64,000 nt of DNA, taken from contig CBDURE010000001.1 in the NCBI GenBank assembly GCA_965369605.1, forward strand, positions 781 to 64,780. Reading direction: 5' to 3'. The DNA is from an uncultured bacterium (lineage in GTDB: Bacteria; JAJVIF01; JAGGVT01). Under the pieces are notes generated by a model. The model had not been told where the DNA came from. It worked only from the letters and a program-made list of their open reading frames with translations, and did no database searches. The position numbers and the translations under genes were made by a program. Within the stretch, counting starts at the first letter, position 1. Every line of letters starts with the position of its first letter. Positions 763-29,013 of this stretch are shown here, piece after piece.

Positions 763-1017
763 GACCTTCCTCCGTTATTGATAAGGATTAATGAATTTTA
801 AGGAAACCAAGTATACGGACTCTAAAATGTAAAGCAAGTGATTTAGTTAAGTATTTGGCGTTTTGATGCAATTCGTGGTGACAGATGAAACCTTTCCTCC
901 TATCTAATTTGCTACATAAATAACCAATATCGCGTTGTTATGGTAAAATCTATTTAGGGAAGATGGAGACAATTCTCCGGGAAAAATAACGATTTCCTTA
1001 TGACAGGGAGCGAGCAC

Positions 1018-4000
1018 ATGATCAAACCAACATTTTTTTCATTTCTGATCTTATTTGTGATTTTAATAATCACCGGATGCTCCTCCACTAAATCAACTCC
1101 GGTGATACCTGAAAATCCTCAAGCGGATATTAATTTACCCGCAACCGAACTTAACACAAGCGAATCATCCCGCAGTATCCTTGGCACATGGACACTCTCA
1201 ATAAACCACGAAACCCTCGAAGCTACAGTTGAACCCGACCGTACTCTCAACGCCCATCACAATGTTACAGGCATGATTCCTGACCCATTGATTACGATTA
1301 ACAGCTGGGACCCAATCGAGGAAATTGCCGATGTTGATATTCAGATTCACAATAATACCTGGATAAGTGTGTACGATGTCCGTCTCATCATCTACACCGA
1401 TGTTGCAGGTCACACACTCATCAACGCCGACAACTGGACTCCACTTTGGGATATTCCGGGAGGACAAATCGCAAACCCATTCAAGGCGTATGCAAAACAC
1501 GAAATTAATCGTGCTTACACAGGACTAATGTGGCACCAGGAGAATTTCCGGATTAAATGTCCAGGTTCGAATTACAGCGTCCAATTCGCAATTGATGTCA
1601 GCTATCCGGGTAATTGCGAGGAACCGTATGAGATCAGCAATTTCCAACAAGGCATCCTGTATGATGATATCGGAGCTGATGCTGTAGTTACAGTTGACGT
1701 TTTCGATTGGCAAAATGACGTGTCAGAGGTTTATCTTCATTGCCCTCAGATTACTGATGAACCTCAAACTCCATTTGAATATGATGTATTGAATCGATGG
1801 ATATTGAATCTAATCAATAATACTGGTGCTTTAGAAGGGGAATATATTGGATATCTGATTGCACGATCAGCAAACTCAAGCGCTTTGGCACTATATGATA
1901 GAGTTTCAATAATTGTAACTACTGGAACCGGTGGCCCAGATATACAACCACCAATATGGGATAGTACTGTCGGGATTGAAAGGGCGGTACCAAGATCCGA
2001 GGAGGTTGTGGTGGTTTGGGGAATTGCCACAGATGAACTAAGTCCACCTGTTGAATATTTGTTGTATATTGACACTGATTATAATCCATGGGATCAGGTA
2101 CCAGTAATTCACATCGACAACTCACCTTATACAGTTACCGGTCTTGAAAACGGCAGGGAATACTGGTTTGGCGTCAGATGTCGTGATAACGCTTCACCAC
2201 CCAATATTGATACAAACATTGTTGTTTTATCAGCAATACCCGATTCAGGTTTACCAATCGATCCTGTGATAATCGGCTCATATGAAAAAGCGATCTACAC
2301 GCCCTATGACTTGGCTTTCAGTGGTGATTTCGCGTTTGTTGCCGATGCCGGAGGACCAGTTAAATCTCTTGATATCAGTGATCCCTATTCTATTGAGATA
2401 ACGGGTGAAGTTGGTGTAACGGGAACCCGCAATATAGATGTAGATGAAGAATATGCCTATGCGGTTTCATGGGATAATCCAACAGATACATGGGAAATGT
2501 CTGTAATTGATATCTCAGATCCAACTGATATGCTTACGTTAGGATCATTGCAGGGATCCGGACGACCTTTTGATATCTCAGCCAGCAATGGAATTGTGTG
2601 CATAAGTGGAGAATTAGATGATACATACTATGGTTTTATGACAATTGATGCGTCTATTCCGAGTAATCCTCAAATTAAGTCGTTTTTTCATTTTGATTAC
2701 TGCGGAAGTCTTGAGGTTTCAGGGAACTATGTATATCTCGCTTGCTATCAAGATGGACTACGAATTTATGATATTTCGAATCCGGAAGCTCCTCAGTTTA
2801 TTAGCTCCTTAATCACGGGTAATAATTGCACTAATGTTGAATTAACACCAGGTTTTGCATTTATTATGGGAGGGTGGGATAGACATGGATATGTGGCAGT
2901 CATTAATATAAGTAACCCCCGGAATCCATTTGTTGTTGATGAAGCTTCATTCTTGAGTTATACCATGAATTTATCAGTCAGTATGTATGACATCACTATT
3001 GGTGATGATTTGTTATATGTTGGCTGGAATGACGCCTATGATGATGTTTTGTCGATTTATGATATAAGTAATCCGGGAGACATTGAATACAAAGGCGGTT
3101 TTGAAGGTCACCCTTTATATGGCTGGTCCCCAATCAAAGCTTACAGGGATTTTATGTATTGTTTAACTTCCAGCGGATTGAAAATTATTGATGTTCGAAA
3201 TCCAGTTAATCCAGAAATCGCAGGTGAGTTTAATGGCTATGATGCTCACAGAATCCGTACAGCAGGATCATACGCTTATACTATTGACATTTTTGATCAA
3301 ACCTTGTCGATATTTGATATCAGTGATCAGTTTCATCCCCATTATGTTAATGATATCAGCTTTGGATCTGGCGGTAGTACGTATTGGTACATTGGGATGG
3401 ATATTGCTGATGATAAAGTTTATATTGCCGATCCTGCAACCGGTTTGCTCATTATAGACATAACTTATCCAGTTAACCCTGTGATTATAAGTTTTTTAAG
3501 TTTATCAGAGTATGCAACGCAAATTATTGTTAAAGGTGACTATGCATATATTGTTTTAAGAGATTATGGGATGGCGATTGTTGACATCTCAGATCCTTAC
3601 AATCCGGAACTAATAGAAACTTATTTGCTTGATGGTTTAACGCACATAGATATCAAGGACAACCTGGTTTATTTAATACATGAGCAGGATTATCACGACG
3701 GTTTACACGTTGTTGATATAAGTGATCCACCCAATCCCCAATTATTGGGTATGGTGGAGGGTCTTTTATCGCCAAATGCGATTGGTATTTACAACGATTA
3801 TTGTTTTATTGGCTCCACTAACACTTTATATTGGACAGTGGATATTAGTGATCCTGCAAATCCAGTAATACTATCTGAGTATTCTGGTAGATCTTACTGC
3901 CGATATATCGAACCTGTATTTCCATATGCTTTTTTTGGTTCTTCCAGGTTCCAGGTGATGGATATTTCCACACCCGAATGGCCAACGCTTGTTAATGAAA

Positions 4001-4092
4001 TAAATATCGATTCATCAGATATTGAAATAAATGACAACATTGCTTACCTCGCTTGCGGGGAAGACGGCTTTAAAATCCTTGAACTATGGTGA
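1018..4092 (+). CDS. surface lipoprotein, family A conserved N-terminal module + C-terminal LVIVD-repeat beta-propeller region
   Basis: Signal peptide with lipobox (LIITGCSS). The conserved N-module (TPVIPENPQADINLPA..WTLSINHETLEATV..YDVRLIIYTD..NPFKAYAK..NCEEPY..DVFDWQNDV) is shared with 4086, 6992 and 40373. The C-terminal half carries ~40-aa repeats of the form GNYAYxA..GL.IxDISNPxNP, typical of the LVIVD repeat found in bacterial and archaeal surface proteins. An in-frame ATG at 1000 is also possible. The RBS-like GGGAG precedes 1018. Confidence 0.8.
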   Translation: MIKPTFFSFLILFVILIITGCSSTKSTPVIPENPQADINLPATELNTSESSRSILGTWTLSINHETLEATVEPDRTLNAHHNVTGMIPDPLITINSWDPIEEIADVDIQIHNNTWISVYDVRLIIYTDVAGHTLINADNWTPLWDIPGGQIANPFKAYAKHEINRAYTGLMWHQENFRIKCPGSNYSVQFAIDVSYPGNCEEPYEISNFQQGILYDDIGADAVVTVDVFDWQNDVSEVYLHCPQITDEPQTPFEYDVLNRWILNLINNTGALEGEYIGYLIARSANSSALALYDRVSIIVTTGTGGPDIQPPIWDSTVGIERAVPRSEEVVVVWGIATDELSPPVEYLLYIDTDYNPWDQVPVIHIDNSPYTVTGLENGREYWFGVRCRDNASPPNIDTNIVVLSAIPDSGLPIDPVIIGSYEKAIYTPYDLAFSGDFAFVADAGGPVKSLDISDPYSIEITGEVGVTGTRNIDVDEEYAYAVSWDNPTDTWEMSVIDISDPTDMLTLGSLQGSGRPFDISASNGIVCISGELDDTYYGFMTIDASIPSNPQIKSFFHFDYCGSLEVSGNYVYLACYQDGLRIYDISNPEAPQFISSLITGNNCTNVELTPGFAFIMGGWDRHGYVAVINISNPRNPFVVDEASFLSYTMNLSVSMYDITIGDDLLYVGWNDAYDDVLSIYDISNPGDIEYKGGFEGHPLYGWSPIKAYRDFMYCLTSSGLKIIDVRNPVNPEIAGEFNGYDAHRIRTAGSYAYTIDIFDQTLSIFDISDQFHPHYVNDISFGSGGSTYWYIGMDIADDKVYIADPATGLLIIDITYPVNPVIISFLSLSEYATQIIVKGDYAYIVLRDYGMAIVDISDPYNPELIETYLLDGLTHIDIKDNLVYLIHEQDYHDGLHVVDISDPPNPQLLGMVEGLLSPNAIGIYNDYCFIGSTNTLYWTVDISDPANPVILSEYSGRSYCRYIEPVFPYAFFGSSRFQVMDISTPEWPTLVNEINIDSSDIEINDNIAYLACGEDGFKILELW

Positions 4093-6893
4093 TTAAGAAA
4101 ATGAGAAAGTACTATTTTATAATTGTTATTTTTTTTCTTTTCCTCATTGGATGTTCCTCCGGCAAATCAACTCCGGTGATACCTGAAAACCCTCAAGCGG
4201 ATATTAATTTACCTGCAAACGAACTCAACACAAGCGAATCACTACACAGCATACTCGGCGCATGGACACTCTCAATAAACCACGAAACTCTCGAAGCGAC
4301 AGTCACACCAAACCGCTCACTTGAGAGACATTACAACGTGAAATATCTTATCCCAATTCCCGAAGTATCCATCAACACAATCTATCCAAACTATGTCATC
4401 GACGCGGATGTTACTCTCACGAATCCCTACACTTTCCCCGCCTACGATGTCCGCCTGATAATTTTCACGGACGAATACGGCCATTTCCTCGACAACGCGG
4501 ACGTCTGGACCGACCTCTATGACATCCCAGTCGGGCAGGACATCAACCCGTTCAAGGCATACGCAAAAGACCAACCCAATCGCATTTTCGAAGGTGAAAC
4601 ACAACACACCGAAAATCTTCTGGTTTTCAACCCACCCCCCGGTCACCCAATCCAGTTCGCGATAGATGCATCCTACCCCTGCAACTGCGAAGAACCTTAC
4701 GCCTTTGAGAATTTCCAACAAGATGTTTTACATCCGCATGTCGGAGCAAACGCTGCAGTCACTATTGACGTTCTCGACTGGCAAAATGATGTATCAGAGG
4801 TTTACCTGCAATGCCCGGAAATCACCAACGAACCTGAAACCCCGTTTGAGTTTGTTGCTTCAAACTCATGGAGCTTGAATCTGGTTAATAACACAGGTGC
4901 TCCGGTCGGTGAATATAACGCCATTATCTATGCGAAATCGTCCGGGTCAGGTAATCTTGAATTAATAGACAAGATAAAAATCAGGATATCAACAATTGGA
5001 ATCCCGCTTAGTCCGGTAAATGTAGGTGAATATCGTACACCTTTGGCATCATGCAAAGATGTTTGTATCCACAATGGTTATCTGTTTGCATTGGATTCCT
5101 ATTATGGTTTATATGTGTTAGACATTTCGAATCCTTCTGAACCGGATATTATCAGTAATCTTCCACTGGAACTTGCAGGCTTTTATAACAGCAAATGCAG
5201 ATTAGATTGTTCAGGTAATTATGCGCTCGCAGGTCCCTCACCTAATAATGGAGGTATCTACACTTATTATGTTGTTGATGTTTCTACCCCACGCCACATG
5301 GAAGTCGTGGGTTCAATTGAACTGAATTATGAAATGGTTGATATATCATACGATGGGAATTACGCGGTTTTGGGAGCGGATTCGGCATTACTAGTATTAG
5401 ACTTGAGCACACCCGGTAATCCTTTTGTGGCGGGAACGTTGGAGATACCATCAGAGTATCCCGTTTTACAGGGGAATTATGTTTATACAGATTCACAAAG
5501 GGATTATCAAAATATAATGTCAGTAGTTGATATAAGTGATCCTGGGAATCCTGTCGTTGTGAGTGAATATGATGTGATGGGTGACTTTTTTTCTTCAAAC
5601 TCCGTGGCTTTAGATGGGAACATTCTTTGCGTGGCAAGCAACACACGTCCTGAACCTGATCTTTCGTGTTATCTGGAAACTGTAGATATCAGTGACCCGC
5701 ATAATCCTGTCAGGTTGGATTATATCGAATTCACCGGATACGCTTTTGAAGAACCCGGTGATGAATTTCGAAGTGTTACTATTTCAGGCGGTTACGTTCT
5801 TTTAACCTGGGAATATTGGATTTCCTGGGATTTGTCTGTTTGCAAGATTCAGTTGCTGGACATCAGTAATCCAGGCTATATCCAGGAAAAAGGCTATTGC
5901 GTACAATCTTTTCTCAATGGCGCAATAGACGGTAATTTCTGTTATGTAGATAATTTTGGATTGGGAATTATAGATTTTAATGATCCTGATAATCTGCAAT
6001 ACAAAAGAGGGTTTTACGGGTTGGATGCTACTGAATTAAAAATAACTGATACAGATCTGGCTTATGTAGCAAACAGTTTTTATAACCTTTGCGTATTTGA
6101 TGTGAATAACCCGCAGAACCCACAAAAACTGAGCGATTATAATCTGCAATATTATAACATCAGAGCTTTAGATTCCTTTAATGATTATGTTTTTCTTTCC
6201 CTGTATGAACCCTCCTGGTATTCCCCAGTGCCTGACAGAATTCTGGTACTGGATGCATCCGATCCCTACTCGTTAAGTGAAACTACTTTTCTTGATGTGG
6301 ATTACCCAATATATGATCTAAATTGTAATGGGGAATATTTATTTGTAGCTTCAGATTGGGGACTTGTTATATTTGATGTTTCGAATCCTCAAATTTTGGG
6401 TCTGACAGGTTCTATCGCTACAGAAATGCTTAACAAAATAACTCAGCAGGATAATTATGTTTATGCTGTAAAGTGGGGATCTTATGGGAAATTCATAGTA
6501 TTTGATATTTCAGATCCCTCAAACCCATGGATTGCTAGTGAAACAGATTGTTATTGTCCATATGATCTTGAAGTTAAAGATAACCTTGCATTTCTTCTTG
6601 GAAAGGGTTATCTGAAAATCTACGATATCTCAACTCCAGCTAATCCGGTTGAAATTACTGAATTTGAACCGCTTGATGATTCTAATTATAGACTTACTGT
6701 CTCGGGGAATTTTATTTATCTTGGTAGGACAGGCGAAATATGGGATATTACGGATCTCCAAAACCCGCAGTATCTAAGCCAACTGGACATTCCTCAACAA
6801 ACTTTATTGAGATCTTATGATTATGAAATAGTCGATAATTATGCATTTTTAAGCTGCGGTGGATTCGGTCTGCAGGTAAACAAGTTGTGGTGA
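4086..6893 (+). CDS. surface lipoprotein, family A N-terminal module + LVIVD-repeat region (paralog)
   Basis: Start overlaps the stop of the upstream gene (ATGGTGA), suggesting translational coupling. Lipobox LIGCSS. The N-module is ~60% identical to 1018 and nearly identical to 6992. C-terminal repeats of the form xNYAxVxxxxxLxVxDxSxPxxP are LVIVD-like. Confidence 0.8.
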   Translation: MVIKKMRKYYFIIVIFFLFLIGCSSGKSTPVIPENPQADINLPANELNTSESLHSILGAWTLSINHETLEATVTPNRSLERHYNVKYLIPIPEVSINTIYPNYVIDADVTLTNPYTFPAYDVRLIIFTDEYGHFLDNADVWTDLYDIPVGQDINPFKAYAKDQPNRIFEGETQHTENLLVFNPPPGHPIQFAIDASYPCNCEEPYAFENFQQDVLHPHVGANAAVTIDVLDWQNDVSEVYLQCPEITNEPETPFEFVASNSWSLNLVNNTGAPVGEYNAIIYAKSSGSGNLELIDKIKIRISTIGIPLSPVNVGEYRTPLASCKDVCIHNGYLFALDSYYGLYVLDISNPSEPDIISNLPLELAGFYNSKCRLDCSGNYALAGPSPNNGGIYTYYVVDVSTPRHMEVVGSIELNYEMVDISYDGNYAVLGADSALLVLDLSTPGNPFVAGTLEIPSEYPVLQGNYVYTDSQRDYQNIMSVVDISDPGNPVVVSEYDVMGDFFSSNSVALDGNILCVASNTRPEPDLSCYLETVDISDPHNPVRLDYIEFTGYAFEEPGDEFRSVTISGGYVLLTWEYWISWDLSVCKIQLLDISNPGYIQEKGYCVQSFLNGAIDGNFCYVDNFGLGIIDFNDPDNLQYKRGFYGLDATELKITDTDLAYVANSFYNLCVFDVNNPQNPQKLSDYNLQYYNIRALDSFNDYVFLSLYEPSWYSPVPDRILVLDASDPYSLSETTFLDVDYPIYDLNCNGEYLFVASDWGLVIFDVSNPQILGLTGSIATEMLNKITQQDNYVYAVKWGSYGKFIVFDISDPSNPWIASETDCYCPYDLEVKDNLAFLLGKGYLKIYDISTPANPVEITEFEPLDDSNYRLTVSGNFIYLGRTGEIWDITDLQNPQYLSQLDIPQQTLLRSYDYEIVDNYAFLSCGGFGLQVNKLW

Positions 6894-6991
6894 CCAGGTT
6901 AAAAGACTAAAACAATTTTTCATTTTTTTTAAGGATGACGGAGGCAATTCTCCGGAAACTCCGGGATTTTGTTATGACAGGGAGCGGGAAA

Positions 6992-9289
6992 ATGATTAAA
7001 TCAACATTTTTTTCATTTCTGATCTTATTTCTGATTTTAATAATCGCCGGATGCTCCTCCACTAAATCAACTCCTGTGATACCTGAAAACCCTCAAGCGG
7101 ATATTAATTTACCTGCAAACGAACTCAACACAAGCGAATCACTACACAGCATACTCGGCGCATGGACACTCTCAATAAACCACGAAACTCTCGAAGCGAC
7201 AGTCACACCAAACCGCTCACTTGAGAGACATTACAACGTGAAATATCTTATCCCAATTCCCGAAGTATCCATCAACACAATCTATCCAAACTATGTCATC
7301 GATGCTGATGTTACTCTCACAAATCCGTATATTTTCCACGCCTATGATCTCCGGTTAATTATCTTCACTGACGAATACGATCATTTCCTAAACAACGCGG
7401 ACGCCTGGACTGACCTCTATGACATCCCAGACGGTCAGGATATCAACCCGTTCAAAGCATACGCAAAAGACCAACCCAACCGCATCTTCGAGGGAGAATC
7501 ACAACATACTGAAAATCTTCTGGTTTTCAACCCACCACCCGGTCACCCAATCCAGTTCGCGATAGATGCATCATTCCCAAATAACTGCGAAGAACCATAC
7601 GAAATTTCAGGCTTCACTCAGGATGACCTTTTCGATCAGGCTGGCGCAGTAGCTAATGTAGAAATAACGGTTAAATCATGGGCTGATAATCCATGTGATG
7701 TTTATCTATATTGCCCGATTATATGTGGTGCAGGATTACTTGAATTCAATCATATTGCGGATGATATCTACGGCGCAAACCTTGTTAATAATACCGGAGC
7801 ATATTCAGGCACTTATGAGGGTTTTATCGTTGCGTATTCCTACAAACACGCTCAAATTGCTCTATATAATGATGTGATGATATCAATTGAACCGAGTAAA
7901 AATGGTTGGGCTCGAACCTGGGGAAGCACAGGCAGTGAGGAGGGCAGCAAGGATGTCGTTGTTGATGATTTCGGCAATATCTATGTGTGCGGTTGGTTCG
8001 AAAATACTATCGACCTGGACCCCGGTCCGGGAGAGGATATCCACTTTTCGCTGGGGCAGTGGGATACTTATGTCAGCAAGTTTAATTCCGATGGCGGTTT
8101 TATCTGGGGGCGTACATGGGGCAGCCCCGGTGAATATGATACTCCAAGGGGTGTCATACTCGATAATGATGGTGGTGTGTATATATGCGGTGGATTCCAT
8201 TACACCGTGGATTTCGATCCCGGCCCCGGTGAAGCATTATTCACTGCTGAAAATAATAGCAACCGTGATGCTTACCTCAATAAACTTGACACTGATGGAA
8301 ATTATGTCTGGACAAAAACATGGGGTGGAATCGGTGGTTGGGATGTCGCTTACGATGTCCAGTTTGATGGTATCGATAAACTCTATGTAATTGGTTTATT
8401 CAATGAAACAGTGGATTTCGATCCGAATTCAGGCTATGACTCTCGCAGCGCTGAAGGAGAATATGATTCCTACCTTTGCCAGCTCGATATTCATGGAAAT
8501 TACTACTGGGTTCAGGCCTGGGGCGGTTCTCACATGACAGTTGCCACAAGCCTGGCATACGATGGAAATGCGAGCCTTTACATAACCGGATGGTTTGATG
8601 GAAACGTCGATTTTGATCCATCGAATGGTGTTGATCAACATGAATCCAGTGGAAGTTGGGATGCATACCTGAGTAAATTCAATACATCAGGTGATTTCGA
8701 ATGGGTCGGAGTTTGGGGCGATCCGGAACCTCAGCATGGTGTACGTGTTGACACTGACAGTTTTGGCAGTGTTTATGTGGCTGGTCATTTTTTTGGGACA
8801 GTTGATTTTGATCACGGTGCTGGAATTGATGTGCGAACGTCAAATGGTAACTTTGATTCATATGTAAGTAAATTAACACCCTTTGGTGAACAGGTCTGGA
8901 CTCTTGCCTGGGGCGCTGAAGAAAATGACTGTTGTTACGGGATAGGTTTGGATGAAAGCGATAACCTTTATGTGACAGGCTCCTTCAGGAGTACAGTTGA
9001 TCTCGATCCGGGTCCGGGCATGGAAGAAATAACATCGAATGGAAACGCAGACATCTTTCTAACACGATTCACGCCAGAAGGTGATTTTATCTGGTCACGC
9101 GCATGGGGTGGTGCAGGACACGACATGGGTTATGAACTCATCACCGACTGCAATGGAAATATTTTTGTTAATGGAAACTATTCCGATGTAGTGGATTTCG
9201 ATCCCGGACCCAATACAGAAGAACATACCTCAAACGGTCAACACGACGCATATATCATAAAACTACTGCCTAACGGTTATTGGGAATAA
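6992..9289 (+). CDS. surface lipoprotein, family A N-terminal module + C-terminal SBBP-type beta-propeller repeats
   Basis: The ORF is open from 6935, but the conserved MIKSTFFSFLILF... signal peptide starts at 6992. The N-module nucleotide sequence is 100% identical to 4086 over ~230 bp. The C-terminus has ~8 repeats of the form DxxGNIYVxGxFxxTVDFDPGPG...DAYLSKFNxxGxxxWxxxWG, typical of SBBP beta-propeller repeats. Confidence 0.8.
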   Translation: MIKSTFFSFLILFLILIIAGCSSTKSTPVIPENPQADINLPANELNTSESLHSILGAWTLSINHETLEATVTPNRSLERHYNVKYLIPIPEVSINTIYPNYVIDADVTLTNPYIFHAYDLRLIIFTDEYDHFLNNADAWTDLYDIPDGQDINPFKAYAKDQPNRIFEGESQHTENLLVFNPPPGHPIQFAIDASFPNNCEEPYEISGFTQDDLFDQAGAVANVEITVKSWADNPCDVYLYCPIICGAGLLEFNHIADDIYGANLVNNTGAYSGTYEGFIVAYSYKHAQIALYNDVMISIEPSKNGWARTWGSTGSEEGSKDVVVDDFGNIYVCGWFENTIDLDPGPGEDIHFSLGQWDTYVSKFNSDGGFIWGRTWGSPGEYDTPRGVILDNDGGVYICGGFHYTVDFDPGPGEALFTAENNSNRDAYLNKLDTDGNYVWTKTWGGIGGWDVAYDVQFDGIDKLYVIGLFNETVDFDPNSGYDSRSAEGEYDSYLCQLDIHGNYYWVQAWGGSHMTVATSLAYDGNASLYITGWFDGNVDFDPSNGVDQHESSGSWDAYLSKFNTSGDFEWVGVWGDPEPQHGVRVDTDSFGSVYVAGHFFGTVDFDHGAGIDVRTSNGNFDSYVSKLTPFGEQVWTLAWGAEENDCCYGIGLDESDNLYVTGSFRSTVDLDPGPGMEEITSNGNADIFLTRFTPEGDFIWSRAWGGAGHDMGYELITDCNGNIFVNGNYSDVVDFDPGPNTEEHTSNGQHDAYIIKLLPNGYWE

Positions 9290-9355
9290 ATACGGCAGGT
9301 GTCAGCCAACACATTTTCCCGGGAAATGGATTCCCGGGCTACACTGGTTTGGTGG

Positions 9356-9628
9356 TTAGGTGTCAGCCATGGTGACAGCCACGTTGGGTATGTACTCACG
9401 CATGTCCTTGTAATATTCATCACGCCCAAACTTATTTATTATTACATGAAGCGGAGCTTTACCTTTACGAAATCCCTCAACACTTGAGTTTTCAATCATG
9501 TTTTGATCGAATTCCGATTTAAGGTTGAGTGCATCTTCGTTTTCCAGTACGATGGACACTAGAAAACTGATCTCGGTTAATTGTTGTATGTTATGTGTTA
9601 ATTTCATCAATATTACAAATAAATACAC
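9356..9628 (-). pseudogene. tig: trigger factor N-terminal (ribosome-binding domain) remnant
   Basis: The 90-aa ORF contains the trigger-factor signature GFRKGKAPLHVIINKFG in the right position relative to the N-terminus. It stops after ~85 residues, and no downstream sequence could encode the PPIase or C-terminal domains, because the 6992 gene ends at 9289. Confidence 0.4.
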
Positions 9629-9652
9629 TCTGAATAGTCTTTATTAAATGTA

Positions 9653-11050
9653 TTAACCTAGAGAAACAATATACGATTCATTCATATTTTGATTTAGATT
9701 GTCATTGAATGTGCATACAATTCTGCCATCAGGTGCGGGTAAAATCTGCCAGAAACATAATCGGGCATTGTCAGGAATAATTTCTAAGTCCTGAATATTT
9801 ATTTCCCATATTGTAACACCATCTTCACCTACCAAGGAAATACTATTTGAATGGCTATATAAAATCTTCCCATCCGAATATACTACTACCGCAGACATAT
9901 ACTGAAATTCTTCTATACTATTTGACCATTGTGCGCTTCCATCTTTGTTGATAGCTTTAAAACTATAAAAGCAACTATTCACCGTTTTTGACTGTGAATT
10001 CTTCATTGTGGGATCATTTGTGGAATAGATTAAAACATCACCGCTACTGTTTACTCCAGCTACTCTTGTTTGTTTTAGTATTGAGTTTAATTCTGATTTT
10101 ACGATTGAACCATCTTGGATTTCAATTAACTCAAACTCATCATAGGTTGATATAGCGATTTGTCCGTTGGATGAAACAAGTACTTGAGTAAATAAATCTA
10201 ACGAAAAAGTGCTATTGTTAATGTTATATTCCCAAATTGGTTCTAAATATTCTGTATAGCATGTTAAGGTATCACTCTTTAATTGTATCCAACCACCTGA
10301 GTCAATCTCCATAGCTTTTATAAAACTTGAGTTAGATATCCTTGGTTTCTTGTTATTGATCTTATTGACAAAATCATTTAAAGCCAACTGATTAAGTAGT
10401 GCTCCATCAGACATTGCATAAGTATTATATAGACTGGAACCTCCGTGACTTACTGGCATCATTATTCGATTGTTCGATATTCTCCATGCACCGGGTTCTG
10501 AATAAATTGCGGTGGCAGGTTCTGTTCTCCAGAGAGTATTTAGATCTAAATCAACACATTCCAAACTCACTAAGTGGTTTATACTTTCACGGAATTCATG
10601 GTTGATAAATATTATTACATTTTTGGTTAATGCAATTGGAGGATACATCTGATAGCTAGGTTGTGATTTAGACAATAGTACTGAACCTTCTTTTGACAAT
10701 TTAACAATATCAAATGGAGCTTTTAAATCAATTAATATTTTATCACTAATATTACTTTGAGTATATTTTAAAAACCATGTATGGCCGTTAGAATCAACAA
10801 TAAGACCACTGTTTAGTTTTATATTCTCCTTAACATACCATTCAACAGATGGTATGTTAGTAGGAGCTGTATAATCACATGCAATTGAATATGTTGACTT
10901 CAAGGGTTGATACTTCCAAGAATTATATAATAATTCTGAATTATTTAATGAGCGATGAAGAATACGACTAGGCAATATATCATCTCTTGGAATAGTGCAA
11001 CTAGTAAATAGGAATATTAATAGTAAAAGGATTAAGAATGAGTATCGCAT
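9653..11050 (-). CDS. hypothetical lipoprotein (possibly beta-propeller-like)
   Basis: 465-aa ORF. MRYSFLILLLLIFLFTSCTIP has a signal peptide and lipobox. It sits immediately downstream of the RHS-family gene on the same strand. Confidence 0.6.
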   Translation of the reverse strand: MRYSFLILLLLIFLFTSCTIPRDDILPSRILHRSLNNSELLYNSWKYQPLKSTYSIACDYTAPTNIPSVEWYVKENIKLNSGLIVDSNGHTWFLKYTQSNISDKILIDLKAPFDIVKLSKEGSVLLSKSQPSYQMYPPIALTKNVIIFINHEFRESINHLVSLECVDLDLNTLWRTEPATAIYSEPGAWRISNNRIMMPVSHGGSSLYNTYAMSDGALLNQLALNDFVNKINNKKPRISNSSFIKAMEIDSGGWIQLKSDTLTCYTEYLEPIWEYNINNSTFSLDLFTQVLVSSNGQIAISTYDEFELIEIQDGSIVKSELNSILKQTRVAGVNSSGDVLIYSTNDPTMKNSQSKTVNSCFYSFKAINKDGSAQWSNSIEEFQYMSAVVVYSDGKILYSHSNSISLVGEDGVTIWEINIQDLEIIPDNARLCFWQILPAPDGRIVCTFNDNLNQNMNESYIVSLG

Positions 11051-11075
11051 TTCAATCTACCTCTGGAAAATTCTA

Positions 11076-12926
11076 TTATATATAAATCGAATAAGGTTCA
11101 CTCAATCCGACAAAAAGATCGGGTCTTGCTTCATAACATTCCTTCGTAATTCCAGCACAATAACCAGGGAGACCATAAAATAAAAGATTAATATCAGAAC
11201 AACTTTCTGGTACAAACATTAAACTCCTAAAAGAAGGCGAACATGAGCTTATTTTACGACCCAAACAACCAATACATGCTTCAACGGTGCATGTACAAAT
11301 CATTCCACAATTCGGGCAATTAGCATCAAAAGAGTCATTCCTAATATCAGCAAAGAAAACGCAATGAGGAGCCTCTCTAACTAAACAAGCACAATACTTC
11401 TCACTAGCGCAAGACCTACAGTTGTCATAATTATCTTCTATTTTACCTACATTACATTGATATGCCGCCAAAAGCTGGTGAGACAAGCCGGGTAGTGGAA
11501 GAGGAGTTCCCGCAAGACATCCAACATAAAAATCATAAGCAGCATCTAAACACTTTCTAAGTTTGAGGCCTGGCCAGCGGAAAAATTTATGTACGCATTC
11601 TTCTTGATCCGATATCCACAGCTTATAACACCACAAGGGATCTCTACCCCATCTCGCATCAAGAGCGAGTGAAATACGCTTTATCTCATTGTTGCATTGT
11701 TCCATCTTTTCTTCCAACAGCAGTTTAACATTTAAACATTCCAATACATCACTGAGCCATATAAGTGCGCATTCAGCTCTTATTAAAAACATGTTATATT
11801 CGCTACAATCCAATCCAGTTCTATCAGTTGAAATAGTTGGCTTATTATTTGCATATCTATAGGGATTTAATCCAGCTGGATTTTCGCTAAGTTGACTAAT
11901 GTAATTCTGGCTGGCTGAGACCATCAGCGGTTCCCTCTGCAGGAAGATACCGAGGAATGGGAGGTAGTGGCGATGGTCGGTGTGATAGAGAGCCTGGTTG
12001 TCGTTGGTGGAACCGGAGTCACAATAGTCCTCTACACGAGTTGAGATATATCGCATGAAGTGCGCCCCGTTGGAATGTGCGTCGTCGAAATCAAGCCATG
12101 CGCCGTAACCGTCGGTGTTGTACCGCTCAGTCGTGACAGTGTATGCACCGCCGGAATACGTCACATTCACAATCGCCCGGACACTCCCCTGCGCGTCCTT
12201 CACCAGATAGCCCTCCTCATCGGGATCGGAATTGAAATCGATATCCTTCAGGTATCCGGTCTCACCGACATAGAGATCGTACGCGATGTCGCGCGAAACA
12301 ACAACTCCCTCCCTGGTCTCATCCCAAATCTGCATCAACGTCCTGCCGTCATGATAGAAAACCTGCGTGTAAGATGTTTCACCCACCGTCCAGGTCTTTT
12401 CCCGAATTCGCCCAAGCGCATCCCACTTCAGAGTGCGAGTGTCACCAGAATTGATTTGGTAAGTACTCAGGCGGTTCTTTCTGTCGTATGTGAAATCCAT
12501 TTGCAAAAGGTCGAACTGACTGGGGCCACTGGTAACAGTAACCGCAGGCAACTGAGTCATATTACCGTTAGCATCATACGTTGGCACAAGATTGCTGCTC
12601 GCACTACCACCACCTGAGACCGCATTGTCCCAATCGGTAATGTGCGCACCTTTGGAATATGTGATTGTGTATTCGATCGAGTCATCACCCTCCAGAATCT
12701 TCTTTTTGGTCATGTTTCCGTTTATATCGTAGGTGTACTCCCGTGCACGGTAAACATCCATTCTCTCGGTAGTAGAATTATACTTGAGATATCTTTCCTC
12801 CACCAGCCTGTCGCGGTAATCGTATTCGTAAATGGCGTTATACTGAGGCCAGGTGTCTTCGCGTGTATTCCACACAGTCTGACGGACTCTGCGTCCCTTT
12901 TTGTCATATTTATACTCAACAGCCAC
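11076..12926 (-). CDS. RHS/YD-repeat family protein (short, no N-terminal secretion domain) with Cys-rich C-terminal toxin-like domain
   Basis: YD repeats are present (YEYDYRDRL, YTYDINGNM, YDANGNM, FTYDRKNRL). The RHS core ends in NPYRYANNKPTISTDRTGL, which matches the conserved PxRYxxNNP...DPxGL core terminus. This is followed by ~245 aa of unrelated sequence with many Cys pairs (CxxC/CxC). There is no signal peptide. The ORF cannot extend 5' because the upstream gene ends 82 bp away. Confidence 0.7.
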   Translation of the reverse strand: MAVEYKYDKKGRRVRQTVWNTREDTWPQYNAIYEYDYRDRLVEERYLKYNSTTERMDVYRAREYTYDINGNMTKKKILEGDDSIEYTITYSKGAHITDWDNAVSGGGSASSNLVPTYDANGNMTQLPAVTVTSGPSQFDLLQMDFTYDRKNRLSTYQINSGDTRTLKWDALGRIREKTWTVGETSYTQVFYHDGRTLMQIWDETREGVVVSRDIAYDLYVGETGYLKDIDFNSDPDEEGYLVKDAQGSVRAIVNVTYSGGAYTVTTERYNTDGYGAWLDFDDAHSNGAHFMRYISTRVEDYCDSGSTNDNQALYHTDHRHYLPFLGIFLQREPLMVSASQNYISQLSENPAGLNPYRYANNKPTISTDRTGLDCSEYNMFLIRAECALIWLSDVLECLNVKLLLEEKMEQCNNEIKRISLALDARWGRDPLWCYKLWISDQEECVHKFFRWPGLKLRKCLDAAYDFYVGCLAGTPLPLPGLSHQLLAAYQCNVGKIEDNYDNCRSCASEKYCACLVREAPHCVFFADIRNDSFDANCPNCGMICTCTVEACIGCLGRKISSCSPSFRSLMFVPESCSDINLLFYGLPGYCAGITKECYEARPDLFVGLSEPYSIYI

Positions 12927-13008
12927 GGTGACAGCCTATATCAAGTTCTATATTATGCATAATAGAGTGTAAACGCTTATAGAGTTGTCTGCGGAACGGA
13001 ATTTTCCC

Positions 13009-14214
13009 CTATTCCTTAAATAGATTCTCCCGCTTCACAGTAATCCTGACTTTATTCCCATATCTGTCAAATACAAATGAAATCTCACTGCCAACCTCAC
13101 CCATTACCATTTCAGATATTTCGAGTGCATCAAAGCCGGTAACATCGATTCCGTCAATCGTGAGTATTTTGTCTCCAACCTGAATGTCGGCATCCATCGC
13201 GGGTGTGTCGGGGAGAACATGATCGACAAAGGGAGCGTTGTCCTCGTACGCCACCATGAATCCGACTGAATCGAACAAGTGAGGCCATCTGTCCCTGAAA
13301 TGTTCGTACGGTTCGAGTATCAGGCGCTGGTTCGGGTAATCGAAAGTAACACGAAAATATCGCAGGAATGTCCAGCCGATAACGCCATGCACAGGCTTTC
13401 CGGCGATAAGGTTAAGCCCCATTCCCAATATGCCGGCATCAATAACGGCTGTGACCATCGATTCAATGCCTGCGTCGCCGATATGGAATTTCGGCATGAG
13501 GAAAATATCAGCCTTTAATTTACCAAGAAAAGTCGCTTCCTCCCATCCGGCTGAGCATGCCCAATTTTCATAGTTAGGAAATTTATTCGCCAGTCGATGC
13601 TTGAAGTAAACCGTGCTTGTCGCGCCAGTATCAACAAGGAAAGCAAACTGCTCATCCGAGTCCATGGGACGGGCATAGAGGAACACCATTTTATTCAGAA
13701 CGTGAATTGGCGTTGCTATCGCGTCAGAGCGTAAAACAGGCGGTTCATCTGATAGCGTGAAGTAACTCTCCTGGTAATCAACTGTCAGATAGTATTTCTG
13801 CAGAAAATCACCTCCGAGAATCGCCATCAGCTCGAATCCGAGATGCCTGTCAACGATTGACAGGTCGAAACCGGTAACAAGGACATCATCGAAATACCAC
13901 TCGCCGAATCCAAATTCCTCAACTTCGTATTGGTCTATCATACCGGCTCCAAGCAAAGCCAGCGGACTCTTTTTCTTCTCAAGCCCGATTCTTTCAGCTA
14001 CTTTTGTGTTGATAATGGATGTGTCCGCGCCGGTGTCCAGAAGGAATATGCCCTCCACTCCGTTTATTTCACCCTCGAACAGGATTATTCCAATGAAATT
14101 CGTGAAATCAACCCGGTTGACATCCGCGCTTGCGAGTGTCGGGCAAAAAGCAATCGAAGCGATTACAAACAGCAGTATGAAAAGTAGATTTTTAGTTTTG
14201 TTCATGTTAACCAT
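13009..14214 (-). CDS. secreted retropepsin-like aspartic protease (two DTGA lobes) with C-terminal PDZ domain
   Basis: Signal peptide present. Two aspartyl-protease active-site motifs, LLDTGADTSII and LVDTGATSTVY. The C-terminal segment (IQVGDKILTIDGIDV...GSEISFVFDRYGNKVRITV) looks like a PDZ fold. Confidence 0.7.
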   Translation of the reverse strand: MVNMNKTKNLLFILLFVIASIAFCPTLASADVNRVDFTNFIGIILFEGEINGVEGIFLLDTGADTSIINTKVAERIGLEKKKSPLALLGAGMIDQYEVEEFGFGEWYFDDVLVTGFDLSIVDRHLGFELMAILGGDFLQKYYLTVDYQESYFTLSDEPPVLRSDAIATPIHVLNKMVFLYARPMDSDEQFAFLVDTGATSTVYFKHRLANKFPNYENWACSAGWEEATFLGKLKADIFLMPKFHIGDAGIESMVTAVIDAGILGMGLNLIAGKPVHGVIGWTFLRYFRVTFDYPNQRLILEPYEHFRDRWPHLFDSVGFMVAYEDNAPFVDHVLPDTPAMDADIQVGDKILTIDGIDVTGFDALEISEMVMGEVGSEISFVFDRYGNKVRITVKRENLFKE

Positions 14215-25197: not shown

Positions 25198-25395
25198 GGG
25201 TGGTTAAAAGGGGACAGCGCCCTTTGATGTCGCCGATTATAAACGCTTTCGTGAACAACCTCGTTTACGTTAGACGCATTCTGCTCTCGCTTCCCTCACT
25301 ATCATGTCAACAAAAAAACAAAACCCGGAGCGTCTGTCGCACCCCGGGTGATTTTATTTTCTACCTTATTCCACCAACACTACTACGGCCCGAAT
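25198..25395. repeat. repeat family 1, copy A (~200 bp, terminator-containing, overlaps the 3' end of 25383c)
   Basis: ~85% identical to 31873-32055, with one ~40-bp indel. Contains the hairpin cccggggtgcg..cgctccggg followed by a T-tract (minus-strand sense). Confidence 0.6.
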
Positions 25396-28103
25396 CGTGC
25401 GATGAACACTTCGTAGCCATAAACATGGCTTAAATTTGTCTCGTTTGGATCACCCGGACCGAATGTGGCCGGACTTCTATATAAACCTGTTATTGCTATT
25501 GAATTATCCGGAAGCGCTGCGATGTCTCGAGAAGAATTATACTCTACTCCAGTGGCGGCGTGTTCAGCCCAATGGACTGTTCCATCGGGATTGTACCACG
25601 CGATAAACGTATCTGTTACATTTCCTGTGGTTAGAGTTCTCTCGTTCGGTTCGGATTGCCCGAATACGATTTCGTCCGTGAAATATCCTGTCACAACGCT
25701 TATATCTCCGAGAATTGTTGTGGCTGCGTACGCTGAATCAGAATTAACCCCACTGGCGCACTTTGCCCATATCAGTGCTCCGTCAGCATCATACCGGGCG
25801 ATGAAAATTTCAGCGGCACCAGCGGAGACAAGTGTTGTCTCGTTCGGGTCACCTTCACCGAAAATCGCCGAATCTGTGAAATATCCCGTTACTGTTACAG
25901 AATCATCCGATAGTGTTGTAATCCCGTGGGCTGAATCCGCAGTTGGGCCACCGGCTTTTTTTGCCCACATAAGTGTTCCGTCGGTATCGTACCTTGCTAC
26001 GAAAATATCCCTAACGCCGTCACAAACAAACGATGTCTGATTAGGCTCGCCCTGACCGAAAAATGCAGTGCCATAAAAATATCCAGTTACTACTGCCGTA
26101 CCGTCTGAAAGCGCTGTGACTGCAATGCCATCGTTACGTCCTGCCGATCCGCCAGCCCGTTTTGCCCAGGCAAGCGTTCCGTCCGGATTGTACTTTGCGA
26201 CAAAGATATCCCTGTATTCAAAGCCATTATAACCAGCGCCATTTGTCAGGCTGGTCTCGTATAGCTCGCCTTTACCGAATGTATATGTACCCGCAAACCA
26301 TCCAGTTGCAATTGTTGAATCATCTGAAAGCGCTGTGACCCCATTGCCATATGCTCGCCCGGTTCCACTGATTGCCTTTGCCCATTCAAGAGTGCCATCA
26401 GGATTATACCGTGCCACGAAAACACCATCGTTTGGATAGTTCTGCAGTGTAATCTGGTTTGGTTCTCCCTGTCCGAATGTGACTGCCCATCCGAAAATTC
26501 CCGTTATTACTACCGAATCGTCTGAAAGAGCTGTAATTCCAAAAGTGGTTTCCCAACCTGCCGCGCCTACGCGTTTCACCCAGAGAAGCGCGCCATCGGG
26601 GTCATACCGCGCGATGAAGATATCGTTCTGCCCGGCTGATCCCACAGTAGTTTCGTTCGATTCACCCATGGCAAATGTGAGATTGCTTCGGAATAATCCC
26701 GATACGACTGTCGAACTGTCCGAAAGCGCTGCGATTGCAAAGCTTTGATCATTATCAGGTCCGACGGCATTTTTCGCCCAGAAAATATTACCGGGCGGCA
26801 CAAATGGCTCTTCAACAACAGTCGCGTTGAAAACCTGATAAACAGCGTATTCAGGAATAATGTAATTATTAAGAAGCACTCCGTCAGGTGAGTCAATCAT
26901 GAAGTCTCGTGGTTCAATTTGCCAGTCAGAGCTTGGGATTCTTTCATCAGTTACTTTAACAAGCCCGGTATATTGCCCCGCTTCAAGGAGGTTTTCGTTT
27001 ACCACGGAAACATTAAAAACAAGGGGATCATCAGGTGTTCCCGTGCCTGAAACAGCCGTGTTTGCCGATGGAAGTGAGTTTGTCATGCCAGGGATTTCCA
27101 CCGAAACCGATGCTATATCACTGGACGCAAAAATGTTATCACCGGGGGCGTTTTCAAAATCATCAGGGGTGGCATAAACTGTCGCGTCTTGCTGCCAATC
27201 GTAAGCACGCACCTCTACATCAAATGGCGTAGTGTCATCATTCTCTACCCAGGTTGATCCAACCTCCGCGGGTCCCGGAGGAGACACATCCACTTTCCAT
27301 GCGGCCTTGCGATTGAACTCGGGATTGTAATATTTCGGAATCAATCGATTGGGTTTCTTCGCGCTAAAGCCATAGCCCATTGTAAGATACATGTTGAACA
27401 TGAGGATTTGATCGGACAGGTTGAATCCGGCATCGAAAGTTTGGTTCGCACCCATTATGAATTTGTTCCATGTGCTTGAGCCTGTTTCGCTGTCATTAAC
27501 GACAAGGAAATACGGCATCGCGGCTGTGTCATCCAGAAGGCTTGAAAGTTCGCTTGTATAACCATCCGCACCTGCGCATGCTCCGGCGTAAATGCTTTTA
27601 CCGGTAAGAGAATAGGTATCCGGTTCGATATTAATCGGCTGAATGAGAAGCGCCAAATCAAAGACATCAAGATCCAGGCGGTTTACCGCGGTCGGTGGCT
27701 TCAATGAATCGCCAGGGTCGAAAGGATGTTTGATATCGAATGTGATAATCACATTAAAATCCAAATCAATGCTCACACTTTCTAATTTTAAACAATCCGT
27801 GCAGGGGTTAATCGTGAAGAAAGCCATTCCACTCACAATGTAAGCCTCACCGATAGCCCCGGATCGTTTGGCAACAAGATTGGCGGTTAACTCATCCGGG
27901 TTGATTGCCAGCTCCCAGGCGCCCATCATTCCAATCGCGCTGATTATGTCCCCCGTATCAGAAAGGCCAATAATGCCAGGTGATAAACCGGAGGCATCAT
28001 CCTGCGTTCCAGCACTACTGCCCGGCGCAAGGGGATTATCACCGGATGAGCACCCCGCCAGCCATACAGCTATAACCAATAGGAGATACGTAAACTGTCT
28101 CAT
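25383..28103 (-). CDS. surface lipoprotein, family B N-terminal module + C-terminal SBBP-type beta-propeller repeats
   Basis: Lipobox LAGCSS. The N-module has GAWELAINPDELTANL..CTDCL..KHPFDPGD..DLDVFDLALL..YYNPEFNRKAAWKV..YDWQ. The C-terminus has ~9 repeats of the form DIFIARYxPDGxLxWAK..GG......GITxLSDxSxxVTGYF, typical of SBBP. Confidence 0.8.
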   Translation of the reverse strand: MRQFTYLLLVIAVWLAGCSSGDNPLAPGSSAGTQDDASGLSPGIIGLSDTGDIISAIGMMGAWELAINPDELTANLVAKRSGAIGEAYIVSGMAFFTINPCTDCLKLESVSIDLDFNVIITFDIKHPFDPGDSLKPPTAVNRLDLDVFDLALLIQPINIEPDTYSLTGKSIYAGACAGADGYTSELSSLLDDTAAMPYFLVVNDSETGSSTWNKFIMGANQTFDAGFNLSDQILMFNMYLTMGYGFSAKKPNRLIPKYYNPEFNRKAAWKVDVSPPGPAEVGSTWVENDDTTPFDVEVRAYDWQQDATVYATPDDFENAPGDNIFASSDIASVSVEIPGMTNSLPSANTAVSGTGTPDDPLVFNVSVVNENLLEAGQYTGLVKVTDERIPSSDWQIEPRDFMIDSPDGVLLNNYIIPEYAVYQVFNATVVEEPFVPPGNIFWAKNAVGPDNDQSFAIAALSDSSTVVSGLFRSNLTFAMGESNETTVGSAGQNDIFIARYDPDGALLWVKRVGAAGWETTFGITALSDDSVVITGIFGWAVTFGQGEPNQITLQNYPNDGVFVARYNPDGTLEWAKAISGTGRAYGNGVTALSDDSTIATGWFAGTYTFGKGELYETSLTNGAGYNGFEYRDIFVAKYNPDGTLAWAKRAGGSAGRNDGIAVTALSDGTAVVTGYFYGTAFFGQGEPNQTSFVCDGVRDIFVARYDTDGTLMWAKKAGGPTADSAHGITTLSDDSVTVTGYFTDSAIFGEGDPNETTLVSAGAAEIFIARYDADGALIWAKCASGVNSDSAYAATTILGDISVVTGYFTDEIVFGQSEPNERTLTTGNVTDTFIAWYNPDGTVHWAEHAATGVEYNSSRDIAALPDNSIAITGLYRSPATFGPGDPNETNLSHVYGYEVFIARFGP

Positions 28104-28341: not shown

Positions 28342-29013
28342 TTGCGCTCATGGCGAGTAGATAGTACACTCTCTTTTGTGAAGAAAGAGATGATAACCTT
28401 AGCCGATAAACAAATTAGAGATGCACTTCATCGTAAGACACTCCGCAAACACCATCGTGCGCCAAATACACTTGTAGTGGATGAATTGGGATTGATGCAC
28501 GGCAAATGTCGAGCAGATATTGCTGTTATTAATGGTCATCTCTTTGGATATGAGATTAAGAGCGATGAAGACACTCTTTCAAGACTTCCTGAACAAGTCA
28601 GAGCGTATTGTGAAGTCTTCGATCGCGTAACTGTTGTAGTCGGGAAGAAGCATGTGAATTTAGTCAGAAATATTGTCCCGGATTGGTGGGGCATCACTGT
28701 TGCCCAAAGAGGGGAACGAGGTGCGGTTAATTTTGAATCTGAAAGATCTGGTCAATTCAACAAGAATCTAAATCTCTTTTCAATTGCTCAGTTGTTGTGG
28801 AAAAGCGAGGTCAGTCAAATTCTTAGCGAATTGGGTGTACCATCGAAACTGTTACGGCAAAGACGTTCTGAACTCTACCGACTGCTCGTAGAGTTGATGA
28901 AACCTAATGACTTGCACCGCAAAGTTAGGGATTGCCTAAGGAGTCGTAAAAATTGGAGATGTCATCCACAACCTTCTCAATATGATGATTCGTACCCACC
29001 CATCTCCAAGTAG
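28342..29013 (+). CDS. PD-(D/E)xK nuclease-fold protein (sce7726/MmcB-like family)
   Basis: The motif block RADIAVINGHLFGYEIKSDEDT fits the D...E.K catalytic core of the PD-(D/E)xK fold, and the size is right for this family. The gene is convergent with the beta-protein gene and overlaps it by ~89 bp. Confidence 0.55.
   Translation: MRSWRVDSTLSFVKKEMITLADKQIRDALHRKTLRKHHRAPNTLVVDELGLMHGKCRADIAVINGHLFGYEIKSDEDTLSRLPEQVRAYCEVFDRVTVVVGKKHVNLVRNIVPDWWGITVAQRGERGAVNFESERSGQFNKNLNLFSIAQLLWKSEVSQILSELGVPSKLLRQRRSELYRLLVELMKPNDLHRKVRDCLRSRKNWRCHPQPSQYDDSYPPISK

Follow-up and report, generated by a model that had tools for sequence, protein, structure and literature searches.

The segment 9364-12936 of a 64-kb stretch of DNA from an uncultivated bacterial lineage (the whole stretch is called the window here, and all coordinates follow its numbering) is best read, with a probability that we place at roughly 0.6, as a displaced ("orphan"-type) cassette copied from an RHS polymorphic-toxin locus of the order rhs, partner gene, Trigger_N-like gene, which would keep an envelope-acting toxin tip as silent stock. 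The genes of this segment are homologous to those of such loci, the unit is truncated at both ends and bracketed by a direct repeat, the base composition breaks within it, and the tip family is linked to a lipoprotein family. The cassette would hold the last 372 residues of an RHS shell with a predicted self-cleavage motif, a 244-amino acid (aa) Cys-rich tip of toxin type, the putative cognate PQQ-beta-propeller lipoprotein and the first ~80 codons of a Trigger_N-like gene. It is a familiar kind of toxin module that carries new parts, and not a new kind of system.

The features of the unit are given below, the residues of the core also in the numbering of the full-length RHS protein P0016.

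11811-12926, minus strand: RHS/YD-repeat core fragment, residues 1-372 (residues 1383-1754 of P0016), ending in NPYRYANNKPTISTDRTGL; G+C 49.1%
11076-11810, minus strand: Cys-rich C-terminal tip, residues 373-616 plus stop codon; 24 Cys, without known family; G+C 38.4%
9653-11050, minus strand: lipoprotein of 465 aa with a PQQ-type (BamB-like) beta-propeller, presumed cognate immunity protein; G+C 32.3%
9356-9628, minus strand: truncated Trigger_N-like reading frame, about 83 aa from the ATG at 9607 (homologues 217-268 aa)
12920-12936, minus strand: 5′ copy of a 17-nucleotide (nt) direct repeat, GGCTGTCACCGTGGCTG on the gene strand; holds the GTG start and abuts the first RHS-homologous codon (12923)
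9364-9380, minus strand: 3′ copy of the same repeat, GGCTGTCACCATGGCTG, 3556 nt from the 5′ copy
9359-9368 and 9298-9307, minus strand: two further copies of the 10-mer GGCTGACACC, bracketing the hairpin CCCGGGAATCCATTTCCCGGG (9318-9338)

The RHS reading frame corresponds to the C-terminal part of a full-length RHS gene

The preliminary description of this DNA had called three open reading frames (ORFs) on the minus strand, 9653-11050 (465 aa), 11076-12926 (616 aa) and 13009-14214 (401 aa), and all three were recovered. The middle one, the RHS ORF, starts with GTG at 12926 and had been credited with YD repeats and an RHS core terminus, which was borne out by matches to RHS_repeat in Pfam (PF05593, E=1.4e-5) and to the YD-repeat model TIGR01643 (E=8.8e-5), while the Rhs core model TIGR03696 scored 31.1 bits on residues 307-372, just below its cutoff of 32.5 bits. 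Furthermore, in the family profile the terminal motif NPYRYANNKPTISTDRTGL lines up with the cleavage motifs that a teneurin-like protein (NLYAYVHNNPVTLRDPSGL) and YenC2 carry. The core is too divergent for direct sequence matches in the PDB and none were found; a Foldseek search with the AF2 model of the whole 616 aa returned solved Rhs cores as the best matches (E about 1e-10), which reflect the RHS part alone. The mean pLDDT of this model is 57, with moderate confidence only for residues 1-170 (beta hairpins) and for helices at ~380-520.

As the preliminary description had also claimed, the product carries no signal peptide and the ORF has no possible upstream extension: the end of the protease gene is 82 nt away. 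In addition, in-frame stops lie 4, 8 and 37 codons ahead of the GTG. No Shine-Dalgarno sequence was seen at its start, though many genes in the window have GGAGG. The solved Rhs cores found by Foldseek measure ~1020-1050 residues against 372 in the RHS ORF, which therefore encodes about one third of a shell; the N-terminal plug or secretion domain and the rest of a shell of ~1000 aa are absent.

The ORF had been regarded as either an N-terminally truncated RHS gene or an unusual "mini-RHS". The first option was upheld by P0016, a 1999-aa YD-repeat protein (RHS_repeat, E=2e-42; only a weak DUF6531 match at its N-terminus) to whose residues 1383-1989 the RHS ORF aligns with 53% identity, tip included. 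The tip is thus carried by full-length Rhs proteins elsewhere (P0016/P0017, 1999 aa). In the locus L024 the gene order is intact and consists of the RHS gene P0017, a 452-aa homologue of the window lipoprotein (the family is called lipo465 here) and a 225-aa Trigger_N gene; the locus of P0016 has this order as well, and the window unit can be described as a slice of it. The second option was disfavoured by the heterogeneous 5′ ends and the arrays of related cassettes, which are described below.

A word-index search retrieved 13 relatives of 347-664 aa, with RHS parts 46-83% identical in the best local alignments and mostly with different C-termini. Fifteen proteins of this clade have the core in common, 31-67% identical across the full-length alignment, and carry at least five unrelated tips; a core conserved among proteins whose tips differ is the pattern of polymorphic toxins. 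In the clade alignment Y356, R357, Y358, N361, P363, D368 and G371 are invariant, as is LQREP (residues 329-333, about 11928-11942) in all 15 members. The upstream position of the cleavage pair is occupied by an invariant Glu (QREP, E332) in 15 of 15 members, with D368 present; we take this Glu to stand at the position of the first catalytic Asp (canonical xDPxG...DPxGL; xxDP in canonical Rhs cores). The spacer before DxxGL is ~12 residues longer in the clade than in canonical Rhs cores.

We fetched 26 related loci and mapped, on P0016 numbering, where the RHS homology begins in cassettes uncut by contig ends. About 20 relatives are similar C-terminal cassettes with 5′ ends scattered over residues 1012-1475 (1012, 1227, 1320, 1334, 1341, 1355, 1381, 1383 in the window, 1396, 1414-1419 and 1475), and small RHS relics begin at residues 1534-1590. 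In all mapped cassettes the stop-free frame opens at most ~50 codons upstream of the RHS homology, usually fewer than 15. Tandem arrays occur in L016 (five cassettes), L002, L007, L011, L013 and L015, and cassettes stand downstream of a main rhs gene in L007, L011 and L016. Of the 26 loci, only L003/L024 (two copies) and L007 showed full-length rhs genes. No conserved DNA motif was seen at the cassette 5′ junctions across loci. In the window, the RHS ORF is the only one of its kind: other RHS homology was absent from the 64 kb even at E=10, so that a frameshifted upstream continuation and a second RHS gene were both rejected. The G+C content breaks at the DRTGL codons, where the core ends, and both tip and lipoprotein gene lie below the window mean of 43.9%.

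Decay of cassettes was observed in close relatives. The N-terminus of P0004 looks frameshifted, and in L004 (2697-5727) an RHS cassette is interrupted by an insertion sequence (IS) element (DDE_Tnp_1 transposase, 3101-4114), with a fragment for residues 17-97 upstream of the element and P0005 downstream. Two modules with related tips stand in tandem in this locus, and a lipo465 homologue follows each of them.

A Cys-rich tip and its lipoprotein partner

The residues that follow DRTGL (which ends at residue 372) had been described as a stretch of ~245 aa with at least 24 Cys and no recognised similarity, and this description proved accurate: the tip counts 244 aa and exactly 24 Cys, the preceding 372-aa core having a single one. 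CxxC pairs lie at 503/506, 537/540 and 551/554, and CxC pairs at 512/514 and 544/546. An alignment of four tip homologues holds 20 invariant Cys and no conserved His; apart from E137 and R185 (tip numbering), no conserved set of polar residues suited to catalysis stands out, and no catalytic motif is recognisable. Pfam returned nothing for the tip even at E≤5, Wnt included, and the tip profile found only noise in the PDB (E>0.4), with no sequence relative there; homology to a toxin family was likewise absent from both searches. An exhaustive phmmer search with the tip alone over 1.84 billion representatives gave two real relatives, P0005 and P0016; a third match, P0015, was rejected as a spurious repeat protein. 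A profile search of a 5.8-billion set gave no match, known members included, and is uninformative. Hidden homology between the window tip and that of P0006 was also rejected (hhalign probability 0.8%). The AF2 model of the tip alone, made from a three-sequence alignment, has a mean pLDDT of 40, because of which it was not used for a fold search; in the model of the 616 aa, four long helices make up the first half of the tip (pLDDT 65-78), and the final 100 residues, where Cys is dense, are left unmodelled.

The lipoprotein gene starts 25 nt past the RHS stop with its own Shine-Dalgarno sequence (AGAGGT). Its product has the lipobox LFTSC, with a Cys18 that is invariant in five homologues. The preliminary description had noted that this gene occupies the usual position of an immunity gene, and its association with the tip was strengthened by the related loci: a lipo465 homologue lies directly downstream in four of four RHS genes with this tip (the window, P0016/P0017 and the two tandem modules of L004) as against one of 18 cassettes with other tips (P0006, in L011; hypergeometric p about 7e-4). 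With a family member behind each of the four RHS genes of this tip, the lipoprotein is probably the cognate immunity protein. Searches with the single sequence gave no matches and relatives turned up only by tblastn in the fetched loci; these homologues are 23-28% identical to the window protein and all have lipoboxes. Against the PDB, a profile of five members matched beta-propellers of the PQQ type (E=3e-11 to 7e-8); three of the five are also matched by Pfam PQQ_2 (BamB family). Judged from these searches, tip and partner appear as families without previous description or annotation.

The predicted site of action is outside the cytoplasm

Across the clade, the tips contain 4-10.4% Cys and are unrelated in sequence (the cores contain 0-1.5%), and some of them carry hydrophobic, membrane-like segments. 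The genes that follow the cassettes code almost without exception for lipoproteins or small membrane proteins; among the partner lipoproteins are PQQ and SBBP propellers, leucine-rich repeat (LRR) and tetratricopeptide repeat (TPR) proteins and a thioredoxin-like protein. Because the partners are exported, the toxins of the clade would be met outside the cytoplasm; lipoprotein and membrane partners have been used in the same way to infer interception outside the cytoplasm for other polymorphic toxins (PMC12419801). For the tip of the window we infer the same site of action, given an exported partner, Cys-rich tips throughout the clade and partners that are nearly all lipoproteins or membrane proteins. 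Twenty conserved Cys, an even set, in a non-cytoplasmic compartment are most simply read as disulfides, so that up to ten of these would stabilise the tip.

A side observation concerns the partner of a different Cys-rich tip (P0007) in L001 (2037-3929), which is a 630-aa lipoprotein with a weak thioredoxin-like match at its N-terminus (PF13899, E=0.002) and may neutralise a disulfide-rich toxin through redox chemistry.

A 17-nt direct repeat brackets the unit

The two copies of the 17-nt direct repeat are identical at 16 of 17 positions and fit the pattern GGCTGTCACCRTGGCTG exactly; with three mismatches allowed, 0.17 occurrences would be expected by chance in the whole window. At the 3′ side, the homology of the Trigger_N-like ORF stops at ...REYI, three codons ahead of the repeat copy. 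The bracketed unit (9364-12936, 3.56 kb) thus reads RHS (1383-end), lipoprotein, Trigger_N (1-~80), and it stands between the 3′ ends of two convergent genes, orf784 (ending at 9289) and the protease gene (ending at 13009). The truncation of the genes at both of its ends suggests that the unit was copied as a fragment and speaks against a designed set of genes. The candidates for the origin of the repeat are a target duplication, an att-like core and a microhomology-mediated dispersed duplication.

Of the 10-mer GGCTGWCACC the window contains six copies, where 0.11 would be expected; four of the six are at the ends of the unit, and the related loci hold none. The hairpin CCCGGGAATCCATTTCCCGGG stands between the unit and the 3′ end of orf784 at 9289. 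Two more copies, GGCTGTCACC, are inverted with respect to each other (37979-37988 on the minus strand and 40629-40638 on the plus strand) and flank ~2.6 kb with a second gene for a glutamate/leucine-type dehydrogenase (38834-40192), an arrangement that may be due to chance.

Read in frame, the two repeat copies both give AVT(V/M)A, so that an in-frame Trigger_N::RHS fusion as in L007 would arise if the ends of the unit were joined. In this locus (Lac Pavin metagenome-assembled genome, JAPKYR010000147) a chimera at ~12490-13257 starts with ~100 aa of a Trigger_N-like N-terminus (...PKFEFADWE) and runs on in frame into an RHS cassette, whose RHS part begins at YDGKGRKVRQT, three codons further in and only a few codons from where the cassettes of the window and of L023 begin. 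In L013 the corresponding junction of truncated Trigger_N and RHS sequences is interrupted by a stop codon.

Genes that consist of Trigger_N only, the ribosome-binding domain of trigger factor (217-268 aa), recur after an RHS gene and its partner, twice in one locus. Besides the window ORF (9356-9628, minus strand), they were found in L001 (4099-4752), in L024 (6735-7541 and 17385-18062) and also in L006, L007, L008 and L013. The Trigger_N-like gene looks like a third member of the module or a preferred boundary. In L001, an 18-nt microhomology (16 of 18 positions) links the RHS core at 452-469 (REYEFD) with the Trigger_N gene at 4373-4390 (PEYEFAD), a possible substrate for the recurrent Trigger_N-RHS junctions.

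Comparison with known systems and proposed role

The closest parallel is offered by the orphan rhs-CT/rhsI modules of Enterobacteriaceae (Poole et al., 2011, PMC3150448; Koskiniemi et al., 2014, PMC3967940). Orphan modules of this kind are rhs gene fragments that keep some of the core, lack export and initiation signals and can fuse to the main rhs gene by homologous recombination, as for the orphan rhs of Salmonella (PMC3967940). Like them, the window cassette joins a 3′ fragment of the core to a variable tip and a downstream partner gene and lacks the N-terminal delivery region; its tip sits on a full-length Rhs of another genome, its relatives form tandem arrays, and the composition breaks at the boundary of core and tip. 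Several traits differ. The window unit lies between unrelated convergent genes and is bracketed by the direct repeat, it keeps a long piece of the core (372 aa), its partner is a 465-aa exported beta-propeller lipoprotein instead of a small cytoplasmic protein, and a third, Trigger_N-like gene accompanies it.

With the Rhs effectors of type VI secretion systems (T6SS; RhsA 7q97, Tse15 8uxt, Salmonella bongori Rhs 8qjc) and with TcC/YenC, the RHS ORF shares the YD-repeat beta-sheet fold, as predicted by the model used for Foldseek, and the C-terminal motif NxYRYxxNxPxxxxDxxGL, aligned with known cleavage sites and directly followed by the tip. It differs from them in its length, about one third of a shell, and in the invariant Glu (QREP) in place of the first Asp. 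PAAR, VgrG, Eag-type and other T6SS genes were absent from the window and from the scanned genes of the related loci, and a link to T6SS was not found; in L007 the full-length rhs follows flagellar hook genes.

The Lipocone/TelC-TipC class (PMC12419801) resembles the present clade in having lipoproteins or membrane proteins as partners, and the first half of the window tip is predicted to be helical; the tip, however, has no sequence match to Wnt or to any Pfam family. Lipocone/Wnt membership was therefore set aside as a lead from the literature without sequence support, from which we borrowed only the logic on the site of action. The partner, in turn, is a lipoprotein with PQQ-like propeller repeats, as are the eight-bladed BamB/PQQ-type lipoproteins; BamB itself matches weakly (E about 0.1), the lipo465 gene is tied to the RHS tip and not to the Bam machinery, and its family is tiny and very divergent.

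In the proposed role, the 616-aa product would be unable to encapsulate or export its own tip. With about a third of the shell present and the N-terminal 1380 residues absent, the tip would remain silent stock, which homologous recombination between the ~1.1-kb core segment and a full-length rhs gene, assumed to exist elsewhere in the genome, could arm. The lipoprotein, which has its own ribosome-binding site and follows a protease gene without terminator, is probably produced and would shield the envelope from the same tip when relatives deliver it. Between the protease gene and the cassette no terminator was detected, so that read-through transcription into the cassette is possible.

If the locus is read in this way, it would add a tip family with 20 invariant Cys and a family of PQQ-propeller lipoprotein partners to the polymorphic-toxin repertoire of an uncultivated lineage, in which the orphan-cassette logic of enterobacteria would also operate. 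From the pattern of the clade, with Cys-rich tips throughout and partners that are nearly always exported lipoproteins or membrane proteins with binding scaffolds (beta-propeller, LRR, TPR), it is predicted that the RHS proteins concerned deliver disulfide-stabilised toxins to the cell envelope. The insertion between repeats, together with Trigger_N junctions that keep recurring, may point to the way in which such cassettes spread. The overall view of RHS systems does not change.

Points against a displaced cassette and alternative explanations

Several observations weigh against a silent, displaced cassette with a cognate immunity gene. In the alignment, the invariant Glu of QREP appears to replace the Asp that comes first in the catalytic pair of canonical Rhs C-terminal proteases. 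No main rhs gene lies upstream in the window, unlike the situation of classical orphans. One unrelated tip class (P0006) has lipo465 partners as well, and these copies are slightly closer to the window protein (28% vs 23% identity); as the scaffold is shared between tip classes, membership in the family does not by itself prove specificity. Finally, several cassette 5′ ends (window, L023, L007) cluster within about five codons, and the GTG start, a low ratio of nonsynonymous to synonymous substitution rates (dN/dS about 0.2) and the 5′ end shared with L023 are compatible with a truncated product under selection.

These last points would fit a stand-alone protein of ~600 aa. It would be translated either from its own start or as an in-frame Trigger_N::RHS fusion that arises when the unit is duplicated in tandem or circularised, and it would do without the N-terminal 1380 residues, for instance because it pairs with a second YD protein or sets its tip free after lysis. 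We consider this rather improbable. In its favour, the ORF is intact from its GTG; the core evolves at a dN/dS of 0.19-0.20 relative to the L022 and L023 cassettes (dS 0.73-0.81), and the first 60 codons at 0.12 relative to L023, whose cassette begins within two codons of that in the window amid unrelated upstream DNA. The clustered 5′ ends, the chimera of L007 and the in-frame AVT(V/M)A of both repeat copies, through which end-joining would recreate the fusion, point the same way. On the other hand, 5′ ends spread over residues 1012-1475 and arrays with relics fit displaced fragments, the ORF lacks the Shine-Dalgarno sequence that many window genes have, there is neither a signal peptide nor a partner YD gene in the window, and the product amounts to about a third of a solved Rhs shell. 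The truncation of the Trigger_N ORF at the opposite end also speaks for an arbitrary fragment. Moreover, the purifying selection could date from a time spent in full-length genes, and a past in such genes, together with arrays grown by duplication of an RHS′-partner-Trigger_N′ unit, explains selection and junctions equally well.

To a similarly low degree of probability, the RHS fragment could be a dead remnant of a rearrangement that is never re-used, only the lipoprotein having a role, as orphan immunity protein or as an unrelated envelope protein. Genes truncated at both ends of the unit, a 64-kb neighbourhood with no main rhs gene, and 5′ decay in close relatives (P0004 apparently frameshifted, P0005 split by an IS) would agree with this. 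The preliminary description had likewise allowed for a degraded fragment of a full-length gene. A full-length copy does exist elsewhere, but the ORF is intact, lacks a frameshifted upstream continuation and has a core under purifying selection (dN/dS about 0.2), for which reasons we favour a displaced cassette over a degraded fragment. A stop-free ORF of 1.85 kb in DNA of 38-49% G+C, at a dN/dS about 0.2 for a dS of about 0.8, and the retention of all the invariant residues of the cleavage region are difficult to reconcile with a dead gene.

Less probable again is that the Cys-rich domain binds metal (Zn-Cys4) or is an adhesive or ligand-binding module, with the beta-propeller lipoprotein as its receptor, folding helper or co-factor. 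The 20 invariant Cys with CxxC and CxC spacing, the absence of a recognisable catalytic motif and of homology to any toxin family in our searches, a partner unusually large for an immunity protein and the weak thioredoxin-like match of the L001 partner can be cited for it; a place behind the predicted cleavage motif, tips that are exchanged on a conserved core and a close linkage of tip and partner are instead, taken together, the signature of a polymorphic toxin with its immunity protein, no His is conserved, and exported partners speak for an oxidising compartment, where disulfides are likelier than Zn sites.

The most doubtful proposal is that the 3.5-kb unit is a discrete movable cassette, inserting at a short repeated GGCTGWCACC-type site (with the 17-nt duplication) and expressed once its ends are joined by tandem duplication or circularisation as a Trigger_N::RHS fusion like that of L007; if true, it would be an undescribed way to mobilise and switch on polymorphic-toxin tips, those of this clade being disulfide-rich and envelope-acting.

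Neighbouring genes

Next to the displaced cassette, and outside the module, lies the following gene.

13009-14214, minus strand: secreted protease with two retropepsin-like DTGA lobes and a PDZ domain

It had been described as a secreted, two-lobed DTGA protease with a PDZ tail, which agrees with its signal peptide, two stretches matching Asp_protease_2 (PF13650, E=7e-15), a match to TIGR02281 (E=4e-10) and a PDZ domain (PDZ_6, E=2e-9). The motifs LLDTGADTS and LVDTGATST are found in the translation (clan AA, retropepsin-like), and both retropepsin-like domains lie within the N-terminal ~300 residues, before the PDZ domain. Having no homologue in any of the 26 related loci, the protease was rejected as a component of the system and is a bystander, and a functional link to the module is not supported. 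The first retropepsin-like domain (residues ~44-149) matches the PADLOC candidate defence family PDC-M08B (E=4e-10), probably as a domain-level resemblance only. Secreted bacterial retropepsin-like enzymes are known, according to PMC12239564 and PMC4140852; a limited literature search returned no paper on the form with tandem lobes and a PDZ domain.

The convergent neighbour on the other side, orf784 (6935-9289, plus strand), codes for an SBBP beta-propeller lipoprotein. Homologues of it stand directly downstream of RHS cassettes, in the position of the partner, in L016 (8335-10041 and 11895-13409) and in L020 (~2030-2953), and orf784 may be an orphan partner gene. Further away in the window, a "Beta_protein" (PF14350, E=1e-85) lies beside a helix-turn-helix protein (28925-31328, minus strand) and a 1020-aa DUF4062-NACHT/STAND-TPR protein is encoded at 35573-38635 (plus strand), both being of types often met in conflict or defence islands. 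Very large secreted proteins with beta-propeller repeats (LVIVD, DUF5122) are encoded at 1000-6893 and 40373-43057 on the plus strand and at 25383-28103 on the minus strand, and the genome seems rich in exported propeller proteins.

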